From Escherichia coli (lineage in GTDB: Bacteria; Pseudomonadota; Gammaproteobacteria; Enterobacterales; Enterobacteriaceae), in NCBI RefSeq assembly GCF_044324785.1, contig NZ_CP172129.1: a DNA stretch of 64,000 nt, one strand, 5' to 3'. The notes below the pieces were generated by a model. That model had not been told where the DNA came from, made no database searches, and worked only from the letters and a program-made list of their open reading frames with translations. Positions 2,004 to 59,125 of this stretch are shown here, in pieces (the stretch's first letter is position 1; each line of letters starts with the position of its first letter). Both the position numbers and the translations under genes were made by a program.

Positions 2004-2685
2004 GAGTTATTTTTCACGTAGCACACGCACTGTTTATGGATACAGGTATTCTGACCTGAACGCCCGGATCCTTCCACGACAATAAATCGCAGCGCGCGGA
2101 TCCTTTTGTTTGATTATCACGCATTATTGCGGGTAAAACCAAATACGTAAAGGCGCATTTTGCCGCTGGGATCCCGTCTTAAGCCAGTCATGGTGCGGGC
2201 TGAGGGCTGGTTTACTGTTTTTGGGAGAATTGGGGTAATGCCAGGACAGGCAGAAACGGAGAAAAAATCCTGCAGACGCCCTTAAAAGACAACTGAAAAT
2301 TTCTGACTCCATATTCCTCTGGTTTCAGACTGCTTAATCACATCATCAACCTGATACATAACAAACAGATTCTGTTCACAGAATGAACAATTAAGTAAAT
2401 GGTTAGATTATGCGAAAAAGTACAGATATTTCTCACCATCGTTATTGAATAATATGTCTTCACACAAACAATATTAATATTTTGAGTGTAAGCCCTGACT
2501 CAAAGAAAGAAATGTCTGTTTTCGGAATCAAAAATATATAGTTATCAAAATACATTAATTTCAAATTTGAAATTAATGTAAAACGATTTAGTAAATGTTA
2601 TGATATTATAAATCTACTCCTCCATGTTTAGAGGAGTATTTGCAGACTGGACGCTCTTATATAGTTACTTACCTTTATACATATT

Positions 2686-3594
2686 CTAACATAAGCATTT
2701 ACCAACCTTACAGGGAACAGACCATAGTAGTTTATATTTCCATTCAGGTCTGAATGCACCGATAGAATATATCATCTTTTTATTATTATCCTGACAATAC
2801 CTTCGCGCTTTATCTATATTCAGCCACATAAGGACACTTCCCGGACTTAGTTTCATGCAATTCTCATCATTCAGAACTGCACCATTTGGAACGTCATAAT
2901 AAACATTACATGAGCTTTCAGATTTCAGTACTATATCAATAGCACACGGTTTATTATCCCAGAATAGCACATGGCCAAACATAAGTTCTCGTAAGTGAGA
3001 AATAAACATTAACAGATTATCATATTCGTAGCAAGGTAGGGTACCTCCAAACCGGGAATGAAAAAGTGATATATAAGAGCTGGATATTTCTTTATCGGAT
3101 AACTGGCTTATACACTTAATCTCTCCGCCATTCCTGATAAATCGCTGGATTTCATTTCGGCGAGTTTTTTCAAATTTAGGTGAAAAAGATTCCTTTATAA
3201 TACAATTTTGTTTTTTTCTGGCTATTTTCCATGTTGCATTGATAATATTTTGTTTATTTATAATTGATAATTTATTAGTTTTATCCGGAAAAAAACATCT
3301 TGCATGTGGGGAAAAAGGAATTAATACCTCATCAGATGAAAGAGGATAAGACCTTCTTGCCATTATCCCAATTTGTTTTCCATTGCACAGAAAATATGAG
3401 CCTTTGATATCACCATCTTTTTCATAGTGAAAAAAATCAAACTTCCAGTCATGATGTATCATAAAGTATGAAACAACATCCGGATGCATGTTTACACTAC
3501 CACCGTATTTTTCAAAAGTTTTTTTGTACGTTTCGAATGTAGATGGTTTCCAGGCCGTAATAATGCGCTTTATATTTTTAATTGACAAAGTCAT
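2686..3594 (-). CDS. mig-14: Mig-14 family protein
   Basis: 302-aa AT-rich ORF; position next to hlyF-ompT matches the ColV-plasmid mig-14 arrangement; sequence resembles the Mig-14 family as I recall it. Confidence 0.65.
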   Translation of the reverse strand: MTLSIKNIKRIITAWKPSTFETYKKTFEKYGGSVNMHPDVVSYFMIHHDWKFDFFHYEKDGDIKGSYFLCNGKQIGIMARRSYPLSSDEVLIPFSPHARCFFPDKTNKLSIINKQNIINATWKIARKKQNCIIKESFSPKFEKTRRNEIQRFIRNGGEIKCISQLSDKEISSSYISLFHSRFGGTLPCYEYDNLLMFISHLRELMFGHVLFWDNKPCAIDIVLKSESSCNVYYDVPNGAVLNDENCMKLSPGSVLMWLNIDKARRYCQDNNKKMIYSIGAFRPEWKYKLLWSVPCKVGKCLC

Positions 3595-4766: not shown

Positions 4767-5198
4767 ATCTAACCTCTTTTGTTTTCATGTGATCATTATA
4801 AAAATAAATTATCTTACATAAACAATGATTAAACAAAATCAAGAGAGATTAAATGTAAAAACAATGTTTATTTTTATACGGCAGAATCCTTCAGGTTATT
4901 GCGTGTGTTTTTATTGGATGGTCTTCTTATTATTGACGAGTAATAGAATTATAATAAAGTTCATATTGTTAACATCGCTTATCAATTATTTTTATGTCGA
5001 TAACACTGTGTCGTTATGCATGAAGAGTGGCAGGGCAGCATCTTTAAAAATACAAGAGTTAACAGAAACACTTTTATCGTTGAGCACATATACCCTCCAC
5101 ATATTATAAAAAATCAAAAGACCACCATCAGAAGTGCTGGCCTTTTGTTTATCATATTTAAAGTGTCATGAAAAAGTTAAAAACAGGCATGCTTCAGG

Positions 5199-6158
5199 TT
5201 AAAAATAATACTTCAGACCAGCTGTGGTCATAAAGTTATAGCTTTCAATGCCTGCACCATTTTTGGTGTGATCAGATATATTCAAATTTCTGGAGTACAG
5301 AGAAGTATCACCTTTCTTATTAGTAATACGGTTCCATGTTCCTTCGACATAAACTTTAGCTGCAGGTGTAATATAATAACCAGCATGTAGTGAGACAGAG
5401 TAATAGTTCTGATTATTTACATCGCTACGATAGGTGATCCTTTTCTCAGGGTTGTAATGCTCATCATTATCCGATGCCTTCACCCATCCGCTATATTTGA
5501 AACTCCCCCCGAACTCAAAGCTATCATACCGATAATTACCGGTTAACCCTATATAGGGCATTTTAAAGTGTTGTTTGTAGCCTATAGCTCTTTCACCATC
5601 TGGAAATGATCCCGTTTCATCCCGGAAGCCTCCCTCACTACTATAGATATAAGAGCCTCCTTTTGCTGTAAAGCTATAACGATTTTCCTGGTAACCAGCC
5701 ATAAGACCTAACTGATAGTCTGGTTGATTCAGGAGCCATCCCTTAATATTCAGGTCGAATTCATTAGCAAAATTTAGACGGGTATTCGGATGTTTACTCT
5801 CATCAGTCCAGGTTCCGGGATTGCTCGTATCCAGCCAGTCCCTGTCCACCATATTGCCTCCACGACCAGCTAATGTTGTCCACCCTGAGGCACCGACAGA
5901 TACTCTGGGTAACAGATCCCAGTTAAATGCCCCCTTGACAATTGGCGCATTACTGTATTTCCAGTCCAGCTGGCTGGCTTTGCGCCCTTTTTCTTCAGGC
6001 AGATAAACCCGTTCTTTGGCCTTGCCACTTAAAGTGCCAAAATCAATCTCCGTACTGATTTTCTCCGGTGTAAAAGAAAGCCCAGTATCAGAAGCCAGTG
6101 CAGCAAACGCTACAGGAGCTGAGAGTGCAGTAGCAAGAATCTTTAAGTACATAGACAA
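5199..6158 (-). CDS. ompT: Plasmid-borne omptin outer-membrane protease (OmpT-like)
   Basis: 319-aa ORF with signal peptide and strong similarity to the omptin family (…NMVDRDWLDTSNPGTWTDES…AGLKYYF). Confidence 0.85.
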   Translation of the reverse strand: MSMYLKILATALSAPVAFAALASDTGLSFTPEKISTEIDFGTLSGKAKERVYLPEEKGRKASQLDWKYSNAPIVKGAFNWDLLPRVSVGASGWTTLAGRGGNMVDRDWLDTSNPGTWTDESKHPNTRLNFANEFDLNIKGWLLNQPDYQLGLMAGYQENRYSFTAKGGSYIYSSEGGFRDETGSFPDGERAIGYKQHFKMPYIGLTGNYRYDSFEFGGSFKYSGWVKASDNDEHYNPEKRITYRSDVNNQNYYSVSLHAGYYITPAAKVYVEGTWNRITNKKGDTSLYSRNLNISDHTKNGAGIESYNFMTTAGLKYYF

Positions 6159-14932: not shown

Positions 14933-15254
14933 GTCTAATTGGGGACAACCAGGAGCAATAAGGAGTGAAAAATAGCCACAGCTGAAAACACCATAGCCAT
15001 TGACATTTGAGCTTTACCTGCTCTTGAAAACAAAAAATCACTGTTAAGCGCAATGCTATTCACTTCAGCAGAGCAGTATTGCGTGTCACGAGCATGTTTA
15101 CCATTCTGTGTAAATATCTTTTCTTAAAAGTGATCATCAAAGCAGTCATCAAACTCGATAAATATCCACCGGCATAGCGTAATGCCGAGCAATTAAGGAT
15201 CAATTGACCGCTCCTTAAACTGCGGCACTATAACGGCTTCTACAACAGGGAGCC

Positions 15255-15633
15255 GTTTTCTTGTGCATAGAAAACCCCCAGCTAGGCTGGGGGTTCCGGA
15301 AAGCTTTCAGCTTTGAGCCAGTTATTAAAACCCCTTTTGATTTGTTAAAACACCTTGCGGTCTGGCAACTGCAAGTGTCAAACAAGAAATCAAAAGGGGG
15401 TCCCAATGGGGAACGAAAAGAGCTTAGCGCACACCCGATGGAACTGTAAATATCACATAGTATTTGCGCCAAAATACCGAAGACAGGTGTTCTACAGAGA
15501 GAAGCGTAGAGCAATAGGCTGTATTTTGAGAAAGCTGTGTGAGTGGAAAAGTGTACGGATTCTGGAAGCTGAATGCTGTGCAGATCATATCCATATGCTA
15601 CAATGTTTGTCAAAGCTCAGTGAAAATGTCTAA
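15255..15633 (+). mobile_element. IS200 remnant: left-end hairpin plus the first ~75 codons of tnpA (15406-15633), 3' truncated
   Basis: Hairpin CCCCCAGCTAGGCTGGGGG followed by an ORF MGNEKSLAHTRWNCKYHIVFAPKYRR… matching IS200 TnpA, which diverges after …ADHIHML. Confidence 0.75.
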
Positions 15634-20869: not shown

Positions 20870-21336
20870 TCATCTTTGATTGGTATTTATCTAGGCAAAA
20901 ATTCATTCAACGTCCACTGCCAAGATGCAACAGGCAGAGTCCTTAACTGTCAGAATCCAAGTGCTCGAAATTATTCGAATTCCTTACTAATTCCTCCTAC
21001 ACAACTATTGTTATGGAAGCTTGCGAAGATGCTCACTATATGGCACGGAAATTTTCGGAAATGCGTCATAAAACAAAGCTAATACCTCCTCATTTTGTCC
21101 AACCCTTCGTTAAAATTAATAAAAATGATTTCTTTGAGGCTGAAACCATATGTGAAGTTACATCAAGCCATCAATGAGATTTGTAGCATTAGGAGCTGAA
21201 TCCCAGCAGAGGATTCCACTTTTCATCCGTCGTTGACAATGGCCTTGAAAAACGCCGTTACTCACCGTTCTCCTTCACGGTAATACGCAGTTATAGTTGC
21301 AGAGCAATGTAATGGATCTTTTATATTAAGAAATTG
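20870..21336 (+). pseudogene. IS110-family transposase N-terminal fragment, frameshifted and cut by IS2
   Basis: Frames give MNNVIFDWYLSR…/…GIYLGKNSFNVHCQDATGRVL…/…KLIPPHFVQPFVKINKNDFFEAE… resembling the N-terminal domain of IS110-family transposases; ends at the IS2 terminus. Confidence 0.4.
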
Positions 21337-21347
21337 TGGATTTGCCC

Positions 21348-22253
21348 CTATATTTCCAGACATCTGTTATCACTTAACCCATTACAAGCCCGCTGCCGCA
21401 GATATTCCCGTGGCGAGCGATAACCCAGCGCACTATGCGGATGCCATTCGTTATAATGCTCGAACGCCTCTGCAAGGTTCTTTGCTGCCGTTAACCCGTC
21501 TGGTTTGGGCATGATACTGATGTAGTCACGCTTTATCGTTTTCACGAAGCTCTCTGCTATTCCGTTACTCTCCGGACTCCGCACCGCCGTGTTCTTCGGT
21601 TCAAGCCCCAACATCCGGGCAAACTGCCGTGTTTCATTAGCCCGGTAGCATGAACCATTATCCGTCAGCCACTCTACTGGAGACGCCGGAAGCTCGTTGC
21701 CGAAGCGGCGTTCCACCGCTCCCAGCATGACGTCCTGTACTGTTTCACTGTTGAAGCCGCCCGTAGTAACCGCCCAGTGCAGTGCCTCACGGTCACAGCA
21801 GTCCAGCGCGAACGTGACTCGCAGTTTTTCTCCGTTATCACAGCGGAACTCGAACCCGTCAGAGCACCATCGTTGATTGCTTTCTTTCACGGCCACTTTG
21901 CCAGTATGTGCCCGTTTCGATGGCGGTACAGCGGTTTTTCGCTCAAGCAACAGCGCATTCTGGCGCATGATCCGGTAAACACGTTTGGCATTGATCGCAG
22001 GCATACCATCAAGTTCGGCCTGTCTGCGAAGCAGCGCCCATACCCGACGATAACCATACGTGGGCAGCTCTCCGATAACATGGTGTATACGGAGAAGCAC
22101 ATCCGTATCATCTGAGTGACGGCTGCGGCGACCATCTTTCCAGTCATCGGTTCGTCTGAGAATTACGTGCAACTGCGCACGCGACACCCGGAGACAACGG
22201 CTGACTAAGCTTACTCCCCATCCCCGGGCAATAAGGGCGCGTGCGCTATCCAC
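21348..22253 (-). CDS. insD: IS2 transposase InsD
   Basis: 301-aa ORF matching IS2 InsD ([30 protein letters not shown]…). Confidence 0.9.
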
Positions 22254-22576
22254 TTTTTTGCCCGTCCATATTCAACGGCTTCTTTGAGGAGTTCATTTTC
22301 CATCGTTTTCTTGCCGAGCAGGCGCTGGAGTTCTTTAATCTGCTTCATGGCGGCAGCAAGTTCAGAGGCAGGAACAACCTGTTCTCCGGCGGCGACAGCA
22401 GTAAGACTTCCTTCCTGGTATTGCTTACGCCAGAGAAATAACTGGCTGGCTGCTACACCATGTTGCCGGGCAACGAGGGAGACCGTCATCCCCGGTTCAA
22501 AGCTCTGCTGAACAATTGCGATCTTTTCCTGTGTGGTACGCCGTCTGCGTTTCTCCGGCCCTAAGACATCAATCAT
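22211..22576 (-). CDS. insC: IS2 InsC (HTH transposase-associated protein)
   Basis: [30 protein letters not shown]… matches IS2 InsC; the track ORF includes an upstream extension. Confidence 0.85.
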
Positions 22577-23187
22577 CTGTTCTCCAATGACTAGTCTAAA
22601 AACTAGTATTAAGACTATCACTTATTTAAGTGATACTGGTTGTCTGGAGATTCAGGGGGCCAGTCTAAGGTGCACGAATCCTAGAGGCAGAATGTTTCTC
22701 CACATGCTTGTGGAGAAACCGCCGCATTTTGCCCGTTCTGTACGATACACCGTAGCCAGAGATAAGATATTCTGTTGCTGTATGCTACATACATTACACT
22801 ATACGAAATCAGGTCTGTTCAATCAGTAAGGAAATAAACGGACAAACGTTATGTAACCCAGACAGAGATATATTGTCTGGGAAAATAGTGGCTTTTGTGG
22901 CGAAAACTAGTAAAACAGCAACCCGAACCACTTGATGTGCATCGTTTTTGATTATTCCCGTATACTCTTGCAGAAGGAGTTCTCCGTCGGGCTACTGTCA
23001 TGGTTAATGCGGGGAATATGGCGACAATACAACACACCTAAAAGAGTAATGGACAGATGAAGCGGTTTATTCATTTCCCATGATTCTGAGTACCTACCAA
23101 GTCTGAGTAACCACTTTTATACTTTTAATTTTCGTTCATTTAGCTATCGTTTAATTATTATCACATAGGATTCTGCCGTTTTTAACA

Positions 23188-23496
23188 ATGCAGGATAATA
23201 AGATGAAAAAAATGTTATTTTCTGCCGCTCTGGCAATGCTTATTACAGGATGTGCTCAACAAACGTTTACTGTTGGAAACAAACCGACAGCAGTAACACC
23301 AAAGGAAACCATCACTCATCATTTCTTCGTTTCGGGAATTGGACAAGAGAAAACTGTTGATGCAGCCAAAATTTGTGGCGGTGCAGAAAATGTTGTTAAA
23401 ACAGAAACTCAGCAAACATTCGTAAATGGATTGCTCGGTTTTATCACTTTTGGCATCTATACTCCGCTGGAAGCCCGGGTATATTGCTCACAATAG
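23188..23496 (+). CDS. iss: Iss (increased serum survival) lipoprotein, Bor family
   Basis: ORF MQDNKMKKMLFSAALAMLITGCAQQ… with lipobox; matches Iss/Bor; start may be the MKKML methionine at 23203. Confidence 0.9.
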   Translation: MQDNKMKKMLFSAALAMLITGCAQQTFTVGNKPTAVTPKETITHHFFVSGIGQEKTVDAAKICGGAENVVKTETQQTFVNGLLGFITFGIYTPLEARVYCSQ

Positions 23497-23533
23497 TTGC
23501 CCATCGATATGGGGAGCTCATCTGCACTGTTCA

Positions 23534-23792
23534 TTAATATACTTCTGGGCTCCCTACAGTTGTTTTTGCATAGTGATAAGCCTCTCTCTGAGGGAGGAAA
23601 TAATCCTGTTCAGCGATGTCTGCCAGTCGGGGGGGCTGCATTATCCACGCCCGAGGCGGTGGTGGCTTCACGCGGGGATGGGCAGATTGATCTGATATGC
23701 AACCGACGACGACCAGCGGCAACATCATCACGCAGAGCTTCATTTTCAGATTTGGGCCACCTTTTGATTTCTCGTTTAACTTTTGCAGTCAC
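23534..23792 (-). pseudogene. Lambda-type lysis-cassette remnant: Rz (i-spanin) C-terminal fragment with embedded Rz1 (o-spanin) lipoprotein ORF
   Basis: Minus-strand ORFs …GRRRLHIRSICPSPREATTASGVDNAA… (Rz-like) and MKLCVMMLPLVVVGC…KPPPP…WIMQPP… (Rz1-like, proline-rich lipoprotein) in overlapping frames, as in lambda. Confidence 0.65.
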
Positions 23793-24355
23793 CAGACTGT
23801 GATTTATTTTAACAAATCAATAGCTTTCATAAAATTCTCGAAGCTGAAAGCTTAACTGAACCAACCAGCCTGGCTGGTGTTTTCTAAAGACAAAAAGGCC
23901 ATCAGCAAAACACTGATAGTCTGAATCACCTTTATCAATCATGTATGAAGAAAATATGCGCAATTAGTTGACAGTGATTATCATTTTCATTAAAAAGAGC
24001 GCGTAGCATTCTTATTTCATGAGGAAATTTACCCGCCAACAACCTGAGTAGCGAAAGCTGTTCATCCCCAATATTTTTGCTGGCGGGTTCTTTTTTCTAC
24101 TGTCCTCCTCCCCAGAGGAAGCATTCCCATTAATCATTACTGGCGAGGAGGCAAGAGAAAAAGTCGGTTCTTTGTCCCTAAATAACAGCATCATTTCAGT
24201 CCATGCAAAATCTGATTTACCAGCTCACATAATAACCTGATGATACACAGTGTAAGTTCACAGAGATATTGCAATTGCCTCCGGATAAGTAAGGGGAGAT
24301 TGCACTATGCAAATGCAGCACCTGAGGTTGGCTATCCTAAGCAGCCGATTATGCG

Positions 24356-25406
24356 TTGAGGCTTTCAGTGATGGCTGATATAGCAACAATGAGAATGAAG
24401 GCTCTGCACTTCTGGGATAAACACGGTATTTCTGCAGCTTCTGAAGCCTTTGGCGTATCCTGCCGCACGCTTTACTGGTGGCGTCAGTTACTGATCAAGG
24501 GAGGACCTGAGGGGCTAATCCCGCACAGTAAGGCACCTCTGGTGCGACGAAAAAAGCACTGGCATCCCGATGTGCTGAAAGAGATTCGACGCCTCAGGAC
24601 AGAGCTGCCGAACCTCGGTAAAGAGCAGATTTTTGTTCGCCTGAAGCCCTGGTGCGCATAACGCCATCAGACCTGCCCGAGTGTTTCCACCATCGGCAGA
24701 ATGATCGCCACCGCACACGATAAAATGCGGATGATACCAGTACGTCTGAGCTCGCGGGGTAAGGCTCTGCTTGTCAAAAAGCGAACCACCACCCCCCCGC
24801 AGGCCAAAGCACTACCGTCCGGTAAAGACAGGAGAGCTCATTGGGATGGACGCCATTGAGCTCAGAATGGGTGAAATGCGTCGCTATATCATTACCATGA
24901 TCGACGAACACAGCGATTATGTACTGGCGCTGGCTGTGCCGTCGCTCAACAGTGATATCGTCAATCACTTTTTCAGCCGTGCAGCCCGGCTGTTCCCTGT
25001 CGGTATCAGCCAGATCATCACAGATAACGGGAAAGAGTTCCTGGGAAGCTTTGACAAAACGCTGCAGGAAGCCGCCATCAAACACCTCTGGACCTATCCC
25101 TACACGCCAAAAATGAACGCTATCTGTGAACGTTTTAACCGGGCATTAAGAGAGCAATTCATTGAATTTAATGAAATTTTACTCTTTGAGGATCTGGCGT
25201 TGTTTAACCTGAAACTGGCGGAATATCTGGCGCTGTATAACAGCAAAAGACTCCACAAGGCGCTCGCACTAACGACGCCCGTGGAATATATTTTAAAAGA
25301 GAACAAAAATTGCAATATGTGGTGGACCCATACACAGCAAACGCACAGGCCGCCCCGGTTGGGTAGATATGTGGGATGGCTGGTTCAGACTTCAGGATAT
25401 GGTTGA
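24356..25406 (+). pseudogene. Integrase-core (DDE) transposase, IS481-family-like, interrupted
   Basis: N-terminal HTH ORF 24356-24661 and DDE-domain ORF 24771-25406 (…ITDNGKEF…YTPKMNAICERFNRAL…) separated by a frame break. Confidence 0.55.
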
Positions 25407-45308: not shown

Positions 45309-46128
45309 TTGGAAAACGGATTTCCCCACGTCAAGAGAATTGATTTGAACGAGTGGCTTCGCTACAAACAGCTCCCGTTTGTGTGTGAAAAACCCCTCTC
45401 AACAGATCTCAACTCTGCACGATATCTACAGGAGATTGCTCCAAAAGGCAGTATCGTGTCTTTTAACTACCGATATAACCCCGTCATCGACATGATAATG
45501 CGTCTGAGAAATGAGAAGAAATTAGGTGAACTGCATTTCTTCTCAGCAGAATTTAATAAAAATTCTGCACTGACCCGCCATCACCTGACCTGGCGAGACT
45601 CCGCACAACAGAGCAAAAGCAGCGGTGCTCTGGGCGATCTATCCTGTCATCTGCTTGATTTATTTTGTTTTATAGGGGAAAGCCCGGTAGTGGTTCATGG
45701 GATCAAAACGGTAAAGGGGACACGTGGGTACAAAATCAGATGGTCAGGTTGAAGTGGATGATAACGGCTATGTAATGGGCAGTTCAGAAAAGGGAGCTTA
45801 TTTCAGAGTTCATGCCAGTAAATCGGAAACAGATCATAATTTGGGACTGCATATACAGCTTGTATTTGAAAATGGTGAAATCAGATATTCAACCCACCAT
45901 GAAAATCGCCTGCTCCTGATTCTATTTAATGATACGAATACGGAAACAATTGGCTTCGACGCTCTGAAACGCTTGCCTGATCCACCACGGGAGCTTCCAT
46001 TCTGGTCTGATTCGTTTATTCATCTTCATGACGACTGGTGTGCTCTTATTAAATATGGTCACTCGTCTCCTAAGCTGGCGGACCTGTCATCCGGCCTTCA
46101 TATACAGGAAATAATTGAGGCATTCTGA
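45309..46128 (+). pseudogene. Gfo/Idh/MocA-family oxidoreductase remnant (lacks N-terminal Rossmann domain, internal frameshift)
   Basis: ORFs 45309-45752 and 45724-46128 in different frames; first contains the conserved EKP motif region (…FVCEKPLS…). Confidence 0.45.
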
Positions 46129-46129
46129 T

Positions 46130-46399
46130 ATGGATACCATTCTTTTAACCGGGCTGTTTGCTGCATTTTTCACAACGTTTGCGTTCGCTCCCCAGAGCAT
46201 AAAAACTATCAGGACACGCAATACCGAAGGTATCTCCGTTGTTATGTATATCATGTTCCTGACAGGTGTAATCTCATGGATAGCGTATGGCATTATGCGA
46301 TCTGATTTTGCCGTACTGATCGCCAATATTGTCACACTGTTTCTGGCTGCACCAGTGCTTGTAATAACACTTATCAACCGCAGGAAAAAACACGTATGA
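46130..46399 (+). CDS. Small membrane protein with a PQ-loop (SemiSWEET-like) motif
   Basis: About 89 aa, three hydrophobic segments and an AFAPQ motif. Confidence 0.4.
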   Translation: MDTILLTGLFAAFFTTFAFAPQSIKTIRTRNTEGISVVMYIMFLTGVISWIAYGIMRSDFAVLIANIVTLFLAAPVLVITLINRRKKHV

Positions 46400-46662
46400 A
46401 TATTGCAATCATCGGCGCGGGTCCTGCCGGCATCATTTCTGCCCGTAATGCGATTAAAGCAGGTCACTCCGTGGTTCTGTTTGAGAAGAATACCCGAATT
46501 GGGGGGATCTGGAACCCCTGGAGTGGTGGCGCTTACCGTAATGCCTGTATGCAGAACTCTCGTTATACATTTCATTATACTGGCTTTCCCCCTGGCGATA
46601 TCGATGAACGAAGTTGGATGCAAATGTCAGATCGTGTGCGCCTGTTAGGGCGCGGCTGGTAA
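46396..46662 (+). pseudogene. N-terminal fragment of an FAD/NAD(P)-binding oxidoreductase
   Basis: Dinucleotide-binding motif IAIIGAGPAG followed by premature termination at 88 aa. Confidence 0.4.
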
Positions 46663-46717
46663 GAGAGCCTTATAGGCGCATTTGAAAAACCTCCGGCTAT
46701 GCCGGAGGATATTTATT

Positions 46718-47170
46718 TCATAATATTCTGAGCAGTCTTGCCGGGTTTCCTGCATAAATGCCTTTGTTCTCAATCGGTTTTACCACAACTGAACCCGCAC
46801 CAATAACAGCTCCGCTGCATATATACGGAGACAGAATAATGGCTCCACTGCCAACAGTAACCGAATCCCCCAGGGTAATGCTGATCCAGTTATCCGGTGA
46901 CGGATCTGGTGCTCCTGAACGAAACAGATCGTTGGCGAACGTCACGTTATGACCAATGAAGCAGTTCTCCCCCAGTGTTACGTTCTCACAAATAAACGTG
47001 TGCGACTGTATCCGGCTTCCACTACCAATGACACAGCCTTTCTGTATCTCAACGAAGGGGCCGACAAACACGTTGTCCCTGAGTTCACATTCATAAATGT
47101 TGACCGGTTTGACAATACGGACATTGGTCCCATAAATCACATCCCGGACAGCACATTCCATAAATTTCAT
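46718..47170 (-). CDS. Hexapeptide-repeat (left-handed beta-helix) acyl/acetyltransferase
   Basis: Repeated [LIV]-G-x-x-x-x hexapeptide pattern through the ORF. Confidence 0.55.
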   Translation of the reverse strand: MKFMECAVRDVIYGTNVRIVKPVNIYECELRDNVFVGPFVEIQKGCVIGSGSRIQSHTFICENVTLGENCFIGHNVTFANDLFRSGAPDPSPDNWISITLGDSVTVGSGAIILSPYICSGAVIGAGSVVVKPIENKGIYAGNPARLLRIL

Positions 47171-58496: not shown

Positions 58497-58651
58497 GGCT
58501 TGTTATGACTGTTTTTTTGTACAGTCTATGCCTCGGGCATCCAAGCAGCAAGCGCGTTACGCCGTGGGTCGATGTTTGATGTTATGGAGCAGCAACGATG
58601 TTACGCAGCAGGGCAGTCGCCCTAAAACAAAGTTAACCCGGAACCAAAATT
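58497..58651. other. attI1 recombination site and cassette promoter region (5'-conserved segment)
   Basis: …GCCCTAAAACAAAGTTA… junction immediately before the first cassette. Confidence 0.7.
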
Positions 58652-59125
58652 GTGAAAGTATCATTAATGGCTGCAAAAGCGAAAAACGGAGTGATTGGTT
58701 GCGGTCCACACATACCCTGGTCCGCGAAAGGAGAGCAGCTACTCTTTAAAGCCTTGACGTACAACCAGTGGCTTTTGGTGGGCCGCAAGACGTTCGAATC
58801 TATGGGAGCACTCCCTAATAGGAAATACGCGGTCGTTACTCGCTCAGCCTGGACGGCCGATAATGACAACGTAATAGTATTCCCGTCGATCGAAGAGGCC
58901 ATGTACGGGCTGGCTGAACTCACCGATCACGTTATAGTGTCTGGTGGCGGGGAGATTTACAGAGAAACATTGCCCATGGCCTCTACGCTCCATATATCGA
59001 CGATTGATATTGAGCCGGAAGGAGATGTTTTCTTTCCGAATATTCCCAATACCTTCGAAGTTGTTTTTGAGCAACACTTTAGCTCAAACATTAACTATTG
59101 CTATCAAATTTGGCAAAAGGGTTAA
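58652..59125 (+). CDS. dfrA5: Trimethoprim-resistant dihydrofolate reductase cassette, DfrA5-like (possibly DfrA14)
   Basis: 157-aa ORF with GTG start, [40 protein letters not shown]…; first cassette after attI1. Confidence 0.8.

Follow-up and report, generated by a model that had tools for sequence, protein, structure and literature searches.

The plasmid gene iss lies within the apparent remnant of a lambda-like prophage lysis region that carries an IS200-family scar

Overall Organization of the iss Region

Comparison of a 64,000-nucleotide stretch of Escherichia coli DNA (the window) with phage and prophage sequences indicated, with high confidence, that the 1.3-kb segment at 22936–24247 is a decayed piece of the lysis (late) region of a lambda-like prophage in which the lysis genes, including both spanin genes, are dead. 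The only gene of this segment that still works is iss, a plasmid-borne allele of bor, a phage "moron." The window belongs, by identity and shared context, to the ColV/ColBM-type family of IncF virulence plasmids (e.g. pECOS88 and the ATCC 11775 plasmid), in which RepFIB, ompT, an hlyF-like SDR gene, ets, IS2, iss, iroBCDEN, and cvaABC form a common context. Over 22600–24400 the window matches pECOS88 of E. coli S88 with 100% identity, and as a whole it is 99.9% identical to, and collinear with, NZ_CP033091.2. On this ColV/IncFIB plasmid the prophage piece has become a fixed part of the conserved virulence region.

The segment at 22936–23753 matches 448 phage records across Bor and an Rz-like spanin, the top ones among the matches listed being ∼88.5% identical. 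Within it, 23149–23753 aligns with lambda 46191–46809 at 86.5% identity over 621 columns (E 0), and the DNA is 88.6% identical to phage 434. The gene order and convergent orientation are those of the bor-Rz/Rz1 region of lambda (45966–46752), of phage 434, and of borD-rzpD-rzoD in the K-12 prophage DLP12, with bor/iss facing the 3′ end of Rz and Rz1 embedded in the +1 frame. This agreement in sequence and layout upholds the original prediction that iss sits within the remnant of a lambda lysis region. The interval first proposed, 22668–23800, takes in this match and was inexact at both ends: phage-like DNA begins at 22936, not at the end of IS2 at 22667, and it resumes at 23886–24247. None of the phages and prophages compared is closer than ∼89–90% to the plasmid segment, and the actual donor is probably not among them.

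Remnants of the Spanin Genes

The minus strand immediately downstream of iss contains an Rz (i-spanin) pseudogene at 23518–23753, corresponding to residues 76–153 of lambda Rz and interrupted by two frameshifts and one in-frame stop. A tblastn search with lambda Rz returned three pieces in three different frames with a joint E of 2e-27: residues 76–117 at 23753→23628 (81% identity), residues 117–128 at 23632→23597, and residues 129–153 at 23595→23518, the last of which includes the stop. The C-terminal Rz fragment expected on the strand opposite iss is thus present, and the N-terminal 75 residues, membrane anchor included, are missing. The fragment scores 50.8 bits against Pfam PF03245 (Phage_lysis; cut-off 25.4), covering positions 47–90 of 126 only, and 52.4 bits against phrog_13. 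It is homologous to Rz and lacks an intact reading frame with an N-terminal anchor and a full periplasmic domain.

Embedded in the Rz remnant is an Rz1 (o-spanin) pseudogene (23580–23749, minus strand) that has kept its signal peptide and the lipobox LVVVGC. Residues 4–43 of lambda Rz1 align at 23749→23630 (80% identity, E 1e-20, tblastn), and the remainder is found in other frames, the Rz1 frame being lost after residue 43 in a run of C near 23630. The lipoprotein signal (LPLVVVGC) lies in the +1 frame of Rz, positioned as in lambda. The intact mature region, from the proline-rich segment to the C terminus, is absent, and lambda Cys29 has been replaced (SQC to HPR). The remnant scores 22 bits against Pfam PF06085, under the cut-off of 27.9, and 49.3 bits against phrog_3198. 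The 69-codon ORF at 23534–23743 (minus strand) opens as Rz1 (MKLCVMMLPLVVVGC) and enters the Rz frame after a 2-bp loss in the C-run, the length of which differs between plasmids and alters ORF calls. The Rz1-like lipoprotein ORF of the original prediction consequently has a genuine Rz1 start and lipobox but is a frameshifted chimera, and no intact lipoprotein gene exists here. PGAP/RefSeq likewise marks both spanins as pseudogenes, with Rz1 noted as "frameshifted; incomplete." Because the remaining Rz/Rz1 sequence is frameshifted, the 22936–24247 segment would be unable to lyse a cell.

At 60 and 69 codons the two ORFs are short, and the GTG start of one is an ORF-calling artefact, features that might be expected of ORFs arising by chance in the DNA of mixed AT/GC content that follows iss. 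That explanation can be dismissed in view of the 86.5% DNA identity to lambda, the tblastn scores for both Rz and Rz1, and the agreement of the Pfam and PHROG matches. Since the Rz/Rz1 similarity is highly significant, the outcome on which the original prediction would have fallen, fragments without significant resemblance to spanin genes, did not arise. Alignment of 23497–23800 with lambda, as had been suggested, shows this similarity, but the spanin remnant itself extends only over 23518–23753.

iss and Its Upstream DNA

The iss gene (23203–23496, plus strand) is an intact 97-codon ORF encoding a Bor-family outer-membrane prolipoprotein. The product matches Pfam PF06291 (Lambda_Bor) with 107.3 bits (cut-off 25) over the full profile (1–75 of 75) and phrog_260 ("Bor-like outer membrane protein") with 196.9 bits over residues 1–97 of 97. 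Its identity to lambda Bor is 91% (E 6e-64), and only two residues separate it from the proteins of phage 434 and of an intact chromosomal lambdoid prophage, L011. The signal peptide ends in the lipobox LITGC with its cysteine (MKKMLFSAALAMLITGC), which aligns with the lipobox LITGC of lambda Bor and from which lipidation is predicted. A search of NCBIfam gave no usable model match for Iss or for the spanin fragments. AMRFinder and PGAP both label 23203–23496 iss.

Going by the literature, Iss would act as a small outer-membrane lipoprotein that raises serum survival. Deletion of plasmid iss in APEC O78-9 abolished serum survival, and neither chromosomal iss nor bor complemented the loss (PMC4313913). 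The gene is routinely given as the homologue of lambda bor (PMC4313913; PMC4723317).

Upstream of iss, the contiguous phage match continues through 22936–23202 (plus strand), which corresponds to the bor upstream/promoter region of lambdoid phages and is 82.9% identical to phage 434; lambda can be aligned with it in part only (76% across 22936–23039). On these alignments, iss arrived together with ∼270 bp of upstream DNA that likewise derives from phage. A promoter scan found no sigma-70 consensus match oriented toward iss, and promoter-like sites were fewer than in shuffled sequences, an uninformative result. An ORF on the minus strand at 22849–23037 was considered as an Rz-like spanin and rejected; its match to phrog_6954 is weak (25 bits, E 3e-5), it sits in the bor-upstream region, and the "Rz-like spanin" cluster phrog_6954 is probably a mis-named small-ORF cluster. 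On the other side of iss, the spacer that separates the convergent iss gene and Rz remnant (23497–23517) contains a short hairpin (CCCATCGATATGGG) and is 9 bp shorter than that of lambda.

A Second Prophage Fragment Collinear with an Intact Prophage

The search for further prophage fragments recommended in the original prediction yielded one at 23886–24247 (minus strand), outside the interval first proposed. This segment is 84.7% identical (E 6e-115) to positions 5001–5368 of L011, which lie directly upstream of the holin gene, as in lambdoid prophages, and end 29 bp from the start of a class II holin gene. It includes a terminator-like hairpin followed by a T-run (23919→23899, minus strand). 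Small ORFs on the minus strand of 23817–24194 gave no PHROG matches.

L011 carries terminase, holin, ydfR, lysozyme, rzpD, iss, and Q, and its positions 2467–3308 match 22936–23753 in the same orientation in which 5001–5368 match 23886–24247, so that the two plasmid segments are collinear with the prophage. Missing from the window is the 1.69 kb that separates the matched segments in L011 and holds holin, ydfR, lysozyme, and the 5′ portion of Rz. The remnant does not amount to a lysis cassette, as no holin or endolysin gene is found upstream of Rz/Rz1; unlike lambda, phage 434, and DLP12, it has lost both of these genes, its Rz is frameshifted and without codons 1–75, and its Rz1 is frameshifted. 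When the late regions of lambda, phage 434, and L011, together with the phage ev058 locus, were compared with all 64 kb by blastn, the only matches were the two segments described and pieces of IS200C.

Transfer of iss from phage to plasmid is argued for because lysis-region DNA is present on both sides of the deletion and is collinear with a prophage. The spanin similarity, the lambda-like layout, and the L011-collinear second fragment together support the earlier suggestion that iss came as prophage cargo. Transfer in the reverse direction, with iss an original plasmid gene from which lambdoid phages took bor, could account for bor being a "moron" that is dispensable and read in opposition to the late operon, and for the mosaic left boundary near 22936, where lambda, phage 434, and L011 each have different neighbors. 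It is nevertheless extremely improbable, given that beyond iss the plasmid holds non-functional pieces of an essential lysis region, collinear with an intact prophage, whereas phages hold intact versions and thousands of chromosomal prophages have bor/iss beside an intact rzpD.

An IS200-family Scar at the Deletion Junction

In place of the 1.69 kb of holin-to-Rz DNA stands an IS200-family left-end remnant of ∼132 bp (23754–23886, minus strand), comprised of a terminator hairpin and the tnpA 5′UTR stem-loop. Rfam RF01405 (STnc490) matches at 90.8 bits (gathering threshold 56), with the full model (1–124) placed at 23761–23882 on the minus strand. Both elements of the IS200/IS200C left end (the Rfam STnc490 / art200 region), namely the terminator hairpin and the stem-loop that sequesters the Shine-Dalgarno (SD) sequence, are matched by the remnant; the published left-end architecture (PMC4513863) was the basis for this comparison. 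The remnant is 75.7% identical to the IS200 left ends that immediately precede tnpA in phages ev058 and PhiR63_2, and overall only ∼70–76% identical to IS200C copies in the window (15252–15599) and in phages.

Homology to IS200 ends 3 nt before the tnpA start, where it is fused to Rz codon 76. The junction reads ...AAAAGGTGGCCCAAA|TCTGAAAATGAAGC..., where IS200 would have CCCAATGGGG (the tnpA start) and lambda has GCTAAAGCTGAAAATGATGC. With a left end present and both tnpA (Y1 transposase) and the right end absent at this site, the IS200 remnant is a scar, not an element, as judged from these matches.

Elements Flanking the Remnant

On the iss side lies a complete IS2 of 1331 bp (21337–22667, minus strand), with ORFs of 136 and 301 amino acids and both ends readable, annotated in RefSeq on the 99.9%-identical plasmids as "IS3-like element IS2 family transposase." Its flanks (AATTG and AGGTG) show no 5-bp target-site duplication. 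The original prediction had the remnant bounded on one side by IS2. IS2 is not the direct boundary of the phage-like DNA: 268 bp without a phage match (22668–22935) intervene, in addition to the lack of a target duplication. This spacer, which is not demonstrably phage-derived, has no blastn match in 50,697 phage records and contains hairpin-forming palindromes at 22694–22719 and 22858–22880, neither of which was found in IMG/VR by exact scans. It is almost confined to the same plasmid family, with 637 plasmid places against 14 chromosomal ones and 553 PLSDB records.

The right bound is a degenerate IS481-family element (24252–25331, plus strand), the start of which was set by chromosomal matches to 24250–24300 and by TGTAAG at 24252. 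Its transposase is frameshifted with an internal stop, and the ORF pieces score 55.7 and 144.4 bits against NCBIfam NF033577, under the cut-off of 224. Pfam HTH_28 and rve domains are present, and PGAP gives an "integrase core domain-containing protein," likewise frameshifted with an internal stop.

A Related Copy beside pap Islands

By estimate, more than 600 E. coli chromosomes have the same junction next to pap islands, at 85–90% identity, for example at 413.7 kb in NZ_CP018957 and at 894.4 kb in the ATCC 25922-type chromosome NZ_CP149500. The island relic is the same three-part composite as that of the plasmid (holin-upstream segment, IS200 left end, and Rz from codon 76), the two being 87, 85, and 90% identical in these parts, respectively. 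An IS3-family element interrupts it at the equivalent of 23664, so that the Rz 3′ end and bor/iss are both lacking; its other side is an ISL3 fragment, where the plasmid has the IS481-like element. With 23300–24100 as query, no chromosomal copy carrying both iss and the IS200 junction in divergent form was found, full-length matches being essentially only of the plasmid type at ≥99% identity. For this reason, the common ancestor of the plasmid and island copies is inferred rather than observed.

These copies bear on whether the ColV plasmid once took up an entire lambdoid prophage that then decayed in place, IS2 and the IS481-like element having inserted only afterwards. A remnant flanked by IS elements is typical of erosion, and the lack of a divergent chromosomal copy with iss plus the junction would fit such a course. 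It is unlikely, however, as the junction and the holin-upstream segment occur in pap islands at only 85–90% identity, and the deletion therefore predates the present context of the plasmid copy. Moreover, the window holds no other lambdoid fragment from the four phage/prophage loci compared, and an IS2 without target duplication suggests rearrangement and not simple insertion.

At 13%, the plasmid and island copies diverge widely for a single deletion event within E. coli, which requires that the event be old or that the DNA passed through other hosts. An old, horizontally circulating module, kept for a useful RNA derived from the IS200 5′UTR or for a small Rz1-type lipoprotein made with the translation signals of tnpA, seems very unlikely; were it so, the presence of the composite in two unrelated virulence contexts (pap islands and the ColV iss-iro region) at 13% divergence would mean retention, not hitch-hiking.

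The observed homologies, collinearity, pseudogene lesions, and shared junction are consistent with a prophage-derived composite with the history that follows, for which we infer the succession of steps, which way the DNA spread, and what the flanking IS elements contributed. An IS200-family element would have inserted just past the terminator-like hairpin, ∼30 bp upstream of the holin gene and in the direction of the late operon. A deletion with its endpoints at the tnpA start codon and Rz codon 76 would then have removed tnpA, the IS right end, holin, endolysin, and the 5′ part of Rz; its mechanism could be illegitimate recombination at a 2–3-nt overlap or an IS200-related event. This order, insertion followed by deletion, is somewhat favored. 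The composite may subsequently have spread horizontally, one lineage coming to lie beside pap islands and losing bor to the IS3-family insertion, the other keeping bor/iss and being captured on a ColV plasmid between IS2 and the IS481-family element.

The prophage origin of iss is already known, the iss/bor homology being standard in the literature and the pseudogenes being annotated in RefSeq; because the conclusion is established and these annotations exist, the finding adds no new biology. The segment shows in textbook fashion how a phage "moron" (bor) turned into a plasmid virulence gene (iss), with loss of the lethal lysis genes. What is added is the extent of the remnant to 24247, the IS200 scar that marks the holin-to-Rz deletion, the sister copy beside pap islands, and the recognition that IS2 is probably not the true boundary. 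These additions are of value mainly for the assembly history of the ColV virulence region and, in typing, for telling iss alleles of plasmids apart from those of prophages.

Distribution and Possible Function of the Remnant

The region is present in 614 RefSeq records (609 of 5426 complete E. coli genomes) and in at least 507 PLSDB plasmids. With 23300–24100 as query, 628 records cover at least 80% and 649 records match at ≥99% identity, and the spanin-remnant sequence is 99–100% conserved in ∼620–630 E. coli records.

Such conservation could be taken to mean that the spanin remnant still functions, either through the 69-codon chimeric lipoprotein, expressed from the IS200 promoter/5′UTR, or through the 5′UTR remnant as a regulatory RNA. 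The ORF at 23534–23743 has kept its start codon, signal peptide, and lipobox and begins ∼10 nt downstream of the tnpA ribosome-binding region of IS200; the 5′UTR structure is well preserved, as its Rfam score indicates, and RNAs derived from the IS200 5′UTR are reported to regulate genes in Salmonella (PMC5435999). A function of either kind is nonetheless highly unlikely. The product is a frameshift chimera with no family match past residue 38; neither the counterpart of lambda Rz1 Cys29 nor the C-terminal part is present in it, and an Rz to pair with is missing. The plasmid and island lineages share no ORF because the island copy has other frames and is cut by the IS3-family element, and even among plasmids the variable C-run changes the ORF calls. 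The tnpA SD sequence is, in addition, normally sequestered and expression is very low (PMC4513863). The near-identity between plasmids reflects recent spread, not selection.

Within the iss interval itself, there are no differences between the window and the iss region of the ColV/ColBM-type plasmids. Elsewhere, cvaB in the window has a 1057-bp insertion that NZ_CP033091.2 lacks.

The iss Gene and Its Phage-derived Surroundings

The iss gene is an intact 97-codon ORF (23203–23496, plus strand). Its product matches Pfam Lambda_Bor at 107.3 bits and phrog_260 at 196.9 bits, shares 91% identity with lambda Bor, and is only two residues away from the Bor-like proteins found in phage 434 and in one chromosomal prophage. 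Alignment with the lambda Rz/Rz1 region, in which similarity had been predicted, placed 23149–23753 against lambda 46191–46809 at 86.5% identity, and 448 phage records align with 22936–23753 across genes annotated as Bor and Rz-like spanin, with identities of ∼88.5% in the top matches listed. The gene is phage-derived, as are ∼270 bp of the DNA upstream of it. A 62-codon ORF in this upstream region (22849–23037, minus strand) gives a weak match to phrog_6954, labeled "Rz-like spanin" (25 bits, E 3e-5), which probably reflects a mis-named small-ORF family and not a spanin.

According to the literature, Iss/Bor is a lipoprotein of the outer membrane that enhances survival in serum. APEC O78-9 required plasmid iss to survive in serum, and neither chromosomal iss nor bor complemented it (PMC4313913). 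The gene has been described as a homologue of lambda bor (PMC4723317), and PMC4384309 cites Johnson et al. 2008 for its lambda origin.

The Spanin Genes Are Disabled

As in lambda, iss and Rz are convergent, with Rz1 embedded in the +1 frame. On the minus strand, residues 76–117, 117–128, and 129–153 of lambda Rz were recovered by tblastn at 23753→23628, 23632→23597, and 23595→23518, respectively, in three different frames and with an in-frame stop in the last (joint E 2e-27). Residues 4–43 of lambda Rz1 match 23749→23630 (E 1e-20), with the rest of Rz1 in other frames. The predicted lambda-like arrangement of an Rz fragment and Rz1 opposite iss is therefore real and, on the strength of the DNA identity and the tblastn matches, far beyond chance. 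The 69-codon ORF at 23534–23743 (minus strand), originally called Rz1-like, does retain a signal peptide and lipobox, but it is not an Rz1 throughout, as 2 bp are missing from a C-run, so that reading passes into the Rz frame, and 1 extra bp then changes the frame once more. Rz is left without its membrane anchor, Rz1 without its frame and without the Cys29 of lambda, and both holin and endolysin are absent from the remnant, such that its lysis genes are deleted or disabled. The view of iss as prophage cargo is supported with minor corrections. RefSeq already annotates the pseudogenes "Rz1 family lipoprotein" and "lysis system i-spanin subunit Rz" at these positions.

The C-run itself (23626–23634, minus strand) varies in length among plasmids that are otherwise 99.8–100% identical, so that PGAP calls a 38-amino acid "Rz1" in some records and a pseudogene in others. 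The variation appears to stem from slippage at the homopolymer, or from sequencing errors, in a neutral relic.

An IS200 Scar Replaces the Remaining Lysis Genes

Directly beyond 23753, where the Rz homology ends, Rfam STnc490, a model of the tnpA 5′-UTR region of IS200, is matched over its full length (23761–23882, minus strand; 90.8 bits, gathering score 56). At 75.7% identity, this sequence resembles the left end of the IS200 copies in two lambdoid phages, where that end sits immediately upstream of tnpA. In the junction alignment IS200 stops at the would-be tnpA ATG, and Rz codon 76 starts there. The IS200 left end comprises a terminator hairpin (nt 12–34) and an SD-sequestering stem-loop (nt 69–138) (PMC4513863); both are kept in the scar, whereas tnpA and the right end are missing.

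A search for further prophage fragments in 22668–24350, as originally suggested, identified 23886–24247. The phage-isolate collection gave no match to it, but it is 84.7% identical (E 6e-115) to a segment of L011, an intact chromosomal lambdoid prophage (NZ_CP178654). The matching L011 segment ends 29 bp upstream of a class II holin, in the order Q ... matching segment, holin, ydfR, lysozyme, rzpD, iss, and then packaging genes. L011 also carries a collinear match to 22936–23753; thus, the prophage-derived stretch is 22936–24247, with a 132-bp IS200 left-end scar standing in place of 1.69 kb (holin through Rz codon 75). In a comparison with the late regions of lambda, phage 434, and L011 and with the ev058 locus, no further lambdoid fragments were found elsewhere in the 64-kb window.

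A second IS200, IS200C, is apparently split. Its left end and the 5′ part of tnpA lie at 15252–15599 (98% identity with IS200 from phage ev058; STnc490 at 15273–15396, 146 bits) and its last 112 bp at 46607–46718 (100% identity), in the same orientation, ∼31 kb apart and with the middle 263 bp missing. The two pieces bracket iss, iroBCDEN, and cvaABC-cvi, which suggests that this block was inserted or rearranged through IS200C.

Boundaries of the Remnant

IS2 (21337–22667) is complete at 1331 bp. That it bounds the remnant proved only approximately right, as it is nearby but separated from the first phage-like base by 268 bp (22668–22935), for which the phage collections searched gave no match. 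Outside this ColV-type plasmid family the spacer is hardly ever found; it contains two palindromes, at 22694–22719 (GTTTCTCCAC-ATGCTT-GTGGAGAAAC) and 22858–22880 (CCAGACAGAGATATATTGTCTGG). In some plasmids the match starts only at its third base or is confined to its final 99 bp, pointing to more than one left junction. IS2 lacks a 5-bp target duplication (AATTG at 21332–21336 versus AGGTG at 22668–22672); its flanks were therefore probably joined by IS2-mediated rearrangement rather than simple insertion.

On the right, a degenerate IS481-family element starts at ∼24252. The mutual homology of the plasmid copy, a chromosomal copy beside pap islands, and the intact prophage ends within 1–2 nt of the same position (window 24247–24252, L011 5368, and 5557 in a second locus, L012), beyond which lie an IS481-like end, an ISL3 end, and unrelated phage DNA, respectively. 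The ends of two different ISs and a mosaic breakpoint in phage DNA thus fall at one site.

A Sister Copy and the Spread of the Region

Many E. coli chromosomes also contain, adjoining pap fimbrial islands, the holin-upstream segment joined to the IS200 left end and to Rz from codon 76, with the same junction (e.g. NZ_CP018957 and NZ_CP149500). With 23700–24300 as query, 1363 records cover at least 80%, and because ∼720 of these are of the plasmid type (at least 99%), the chromosomal copies are estimated at ∼600 or more. Identity between the two types is 90, 85, and 87% in the Rz, IS200, and holin-upstream sub-segments, respectively, which fits one old event with divergence afterwards. An IS3-family element cuts the chromosomal copies at the equivalent of window 23664, and bor/iss is consequently missing from them; no divergent copy keeping iss was found.

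We propose that IS200 first inserted behind a terminator-like hairpin that precedes the holin (phage ev058 likewise has its IS200 directly behind such a hairpin) and that a subsequent deletion extended from the start of tnpA as far as codon 76 of Rz. The resulting relic would have spread horizontally and been captured by the plasmid via IS-mediated events.

The window is a ColV/IncFIB virulence plasmid (RepFIB, mig-14, an hlyF-type SDR, ompT, ets efflux genes, IS2, iss, iroBCDEN, and cvaABC-cvi), collinear with the plasmid of E. coli ATCC 11775 (NZ_CP033091.2) at 99.9% identity; pECOS88 is 100% identical over 22600–24400. The stretch 22668–24350 recurs with almost no change in 614 RefSeq records (609 of 5426 complete E. 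coli genomes), and at least 507 PLSDB plasmids cover 22000–25000. It is the iss region known from ColV-type plasmids, and the observation is already known: Chuba et al. (1989) reportedly first sequenced iss and noted homology of its region with lambda DNA, and Barondess and Beckwith, then Johnson et al. (2008), are said to have taken this further. No description of the IS200 scar, the holin-upstream fragment, or the pap-island copy was found in the literature; these refine the iss story and do not change it.

Elsewhere in the window, a 1057-bp insertion absent from NZ_CP033091.2 (42110–43166) contains a 322-codon ORF, has the ends GGCTTTGTTGAATAAATC..., and lies between two copies of the 9-bp direct repeat CTTCTCAGA. 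In size, ends, and duplication it corresponds to IS903/IS102. The insertion interrupts cvaB, the colicin V exporter gene, and colicin V export may therefore be lost. At 58586–58658, a match to Rfam AAC_AAD_leader/attI (66.9 bits) suggests an attI region of the class 1 integron type.
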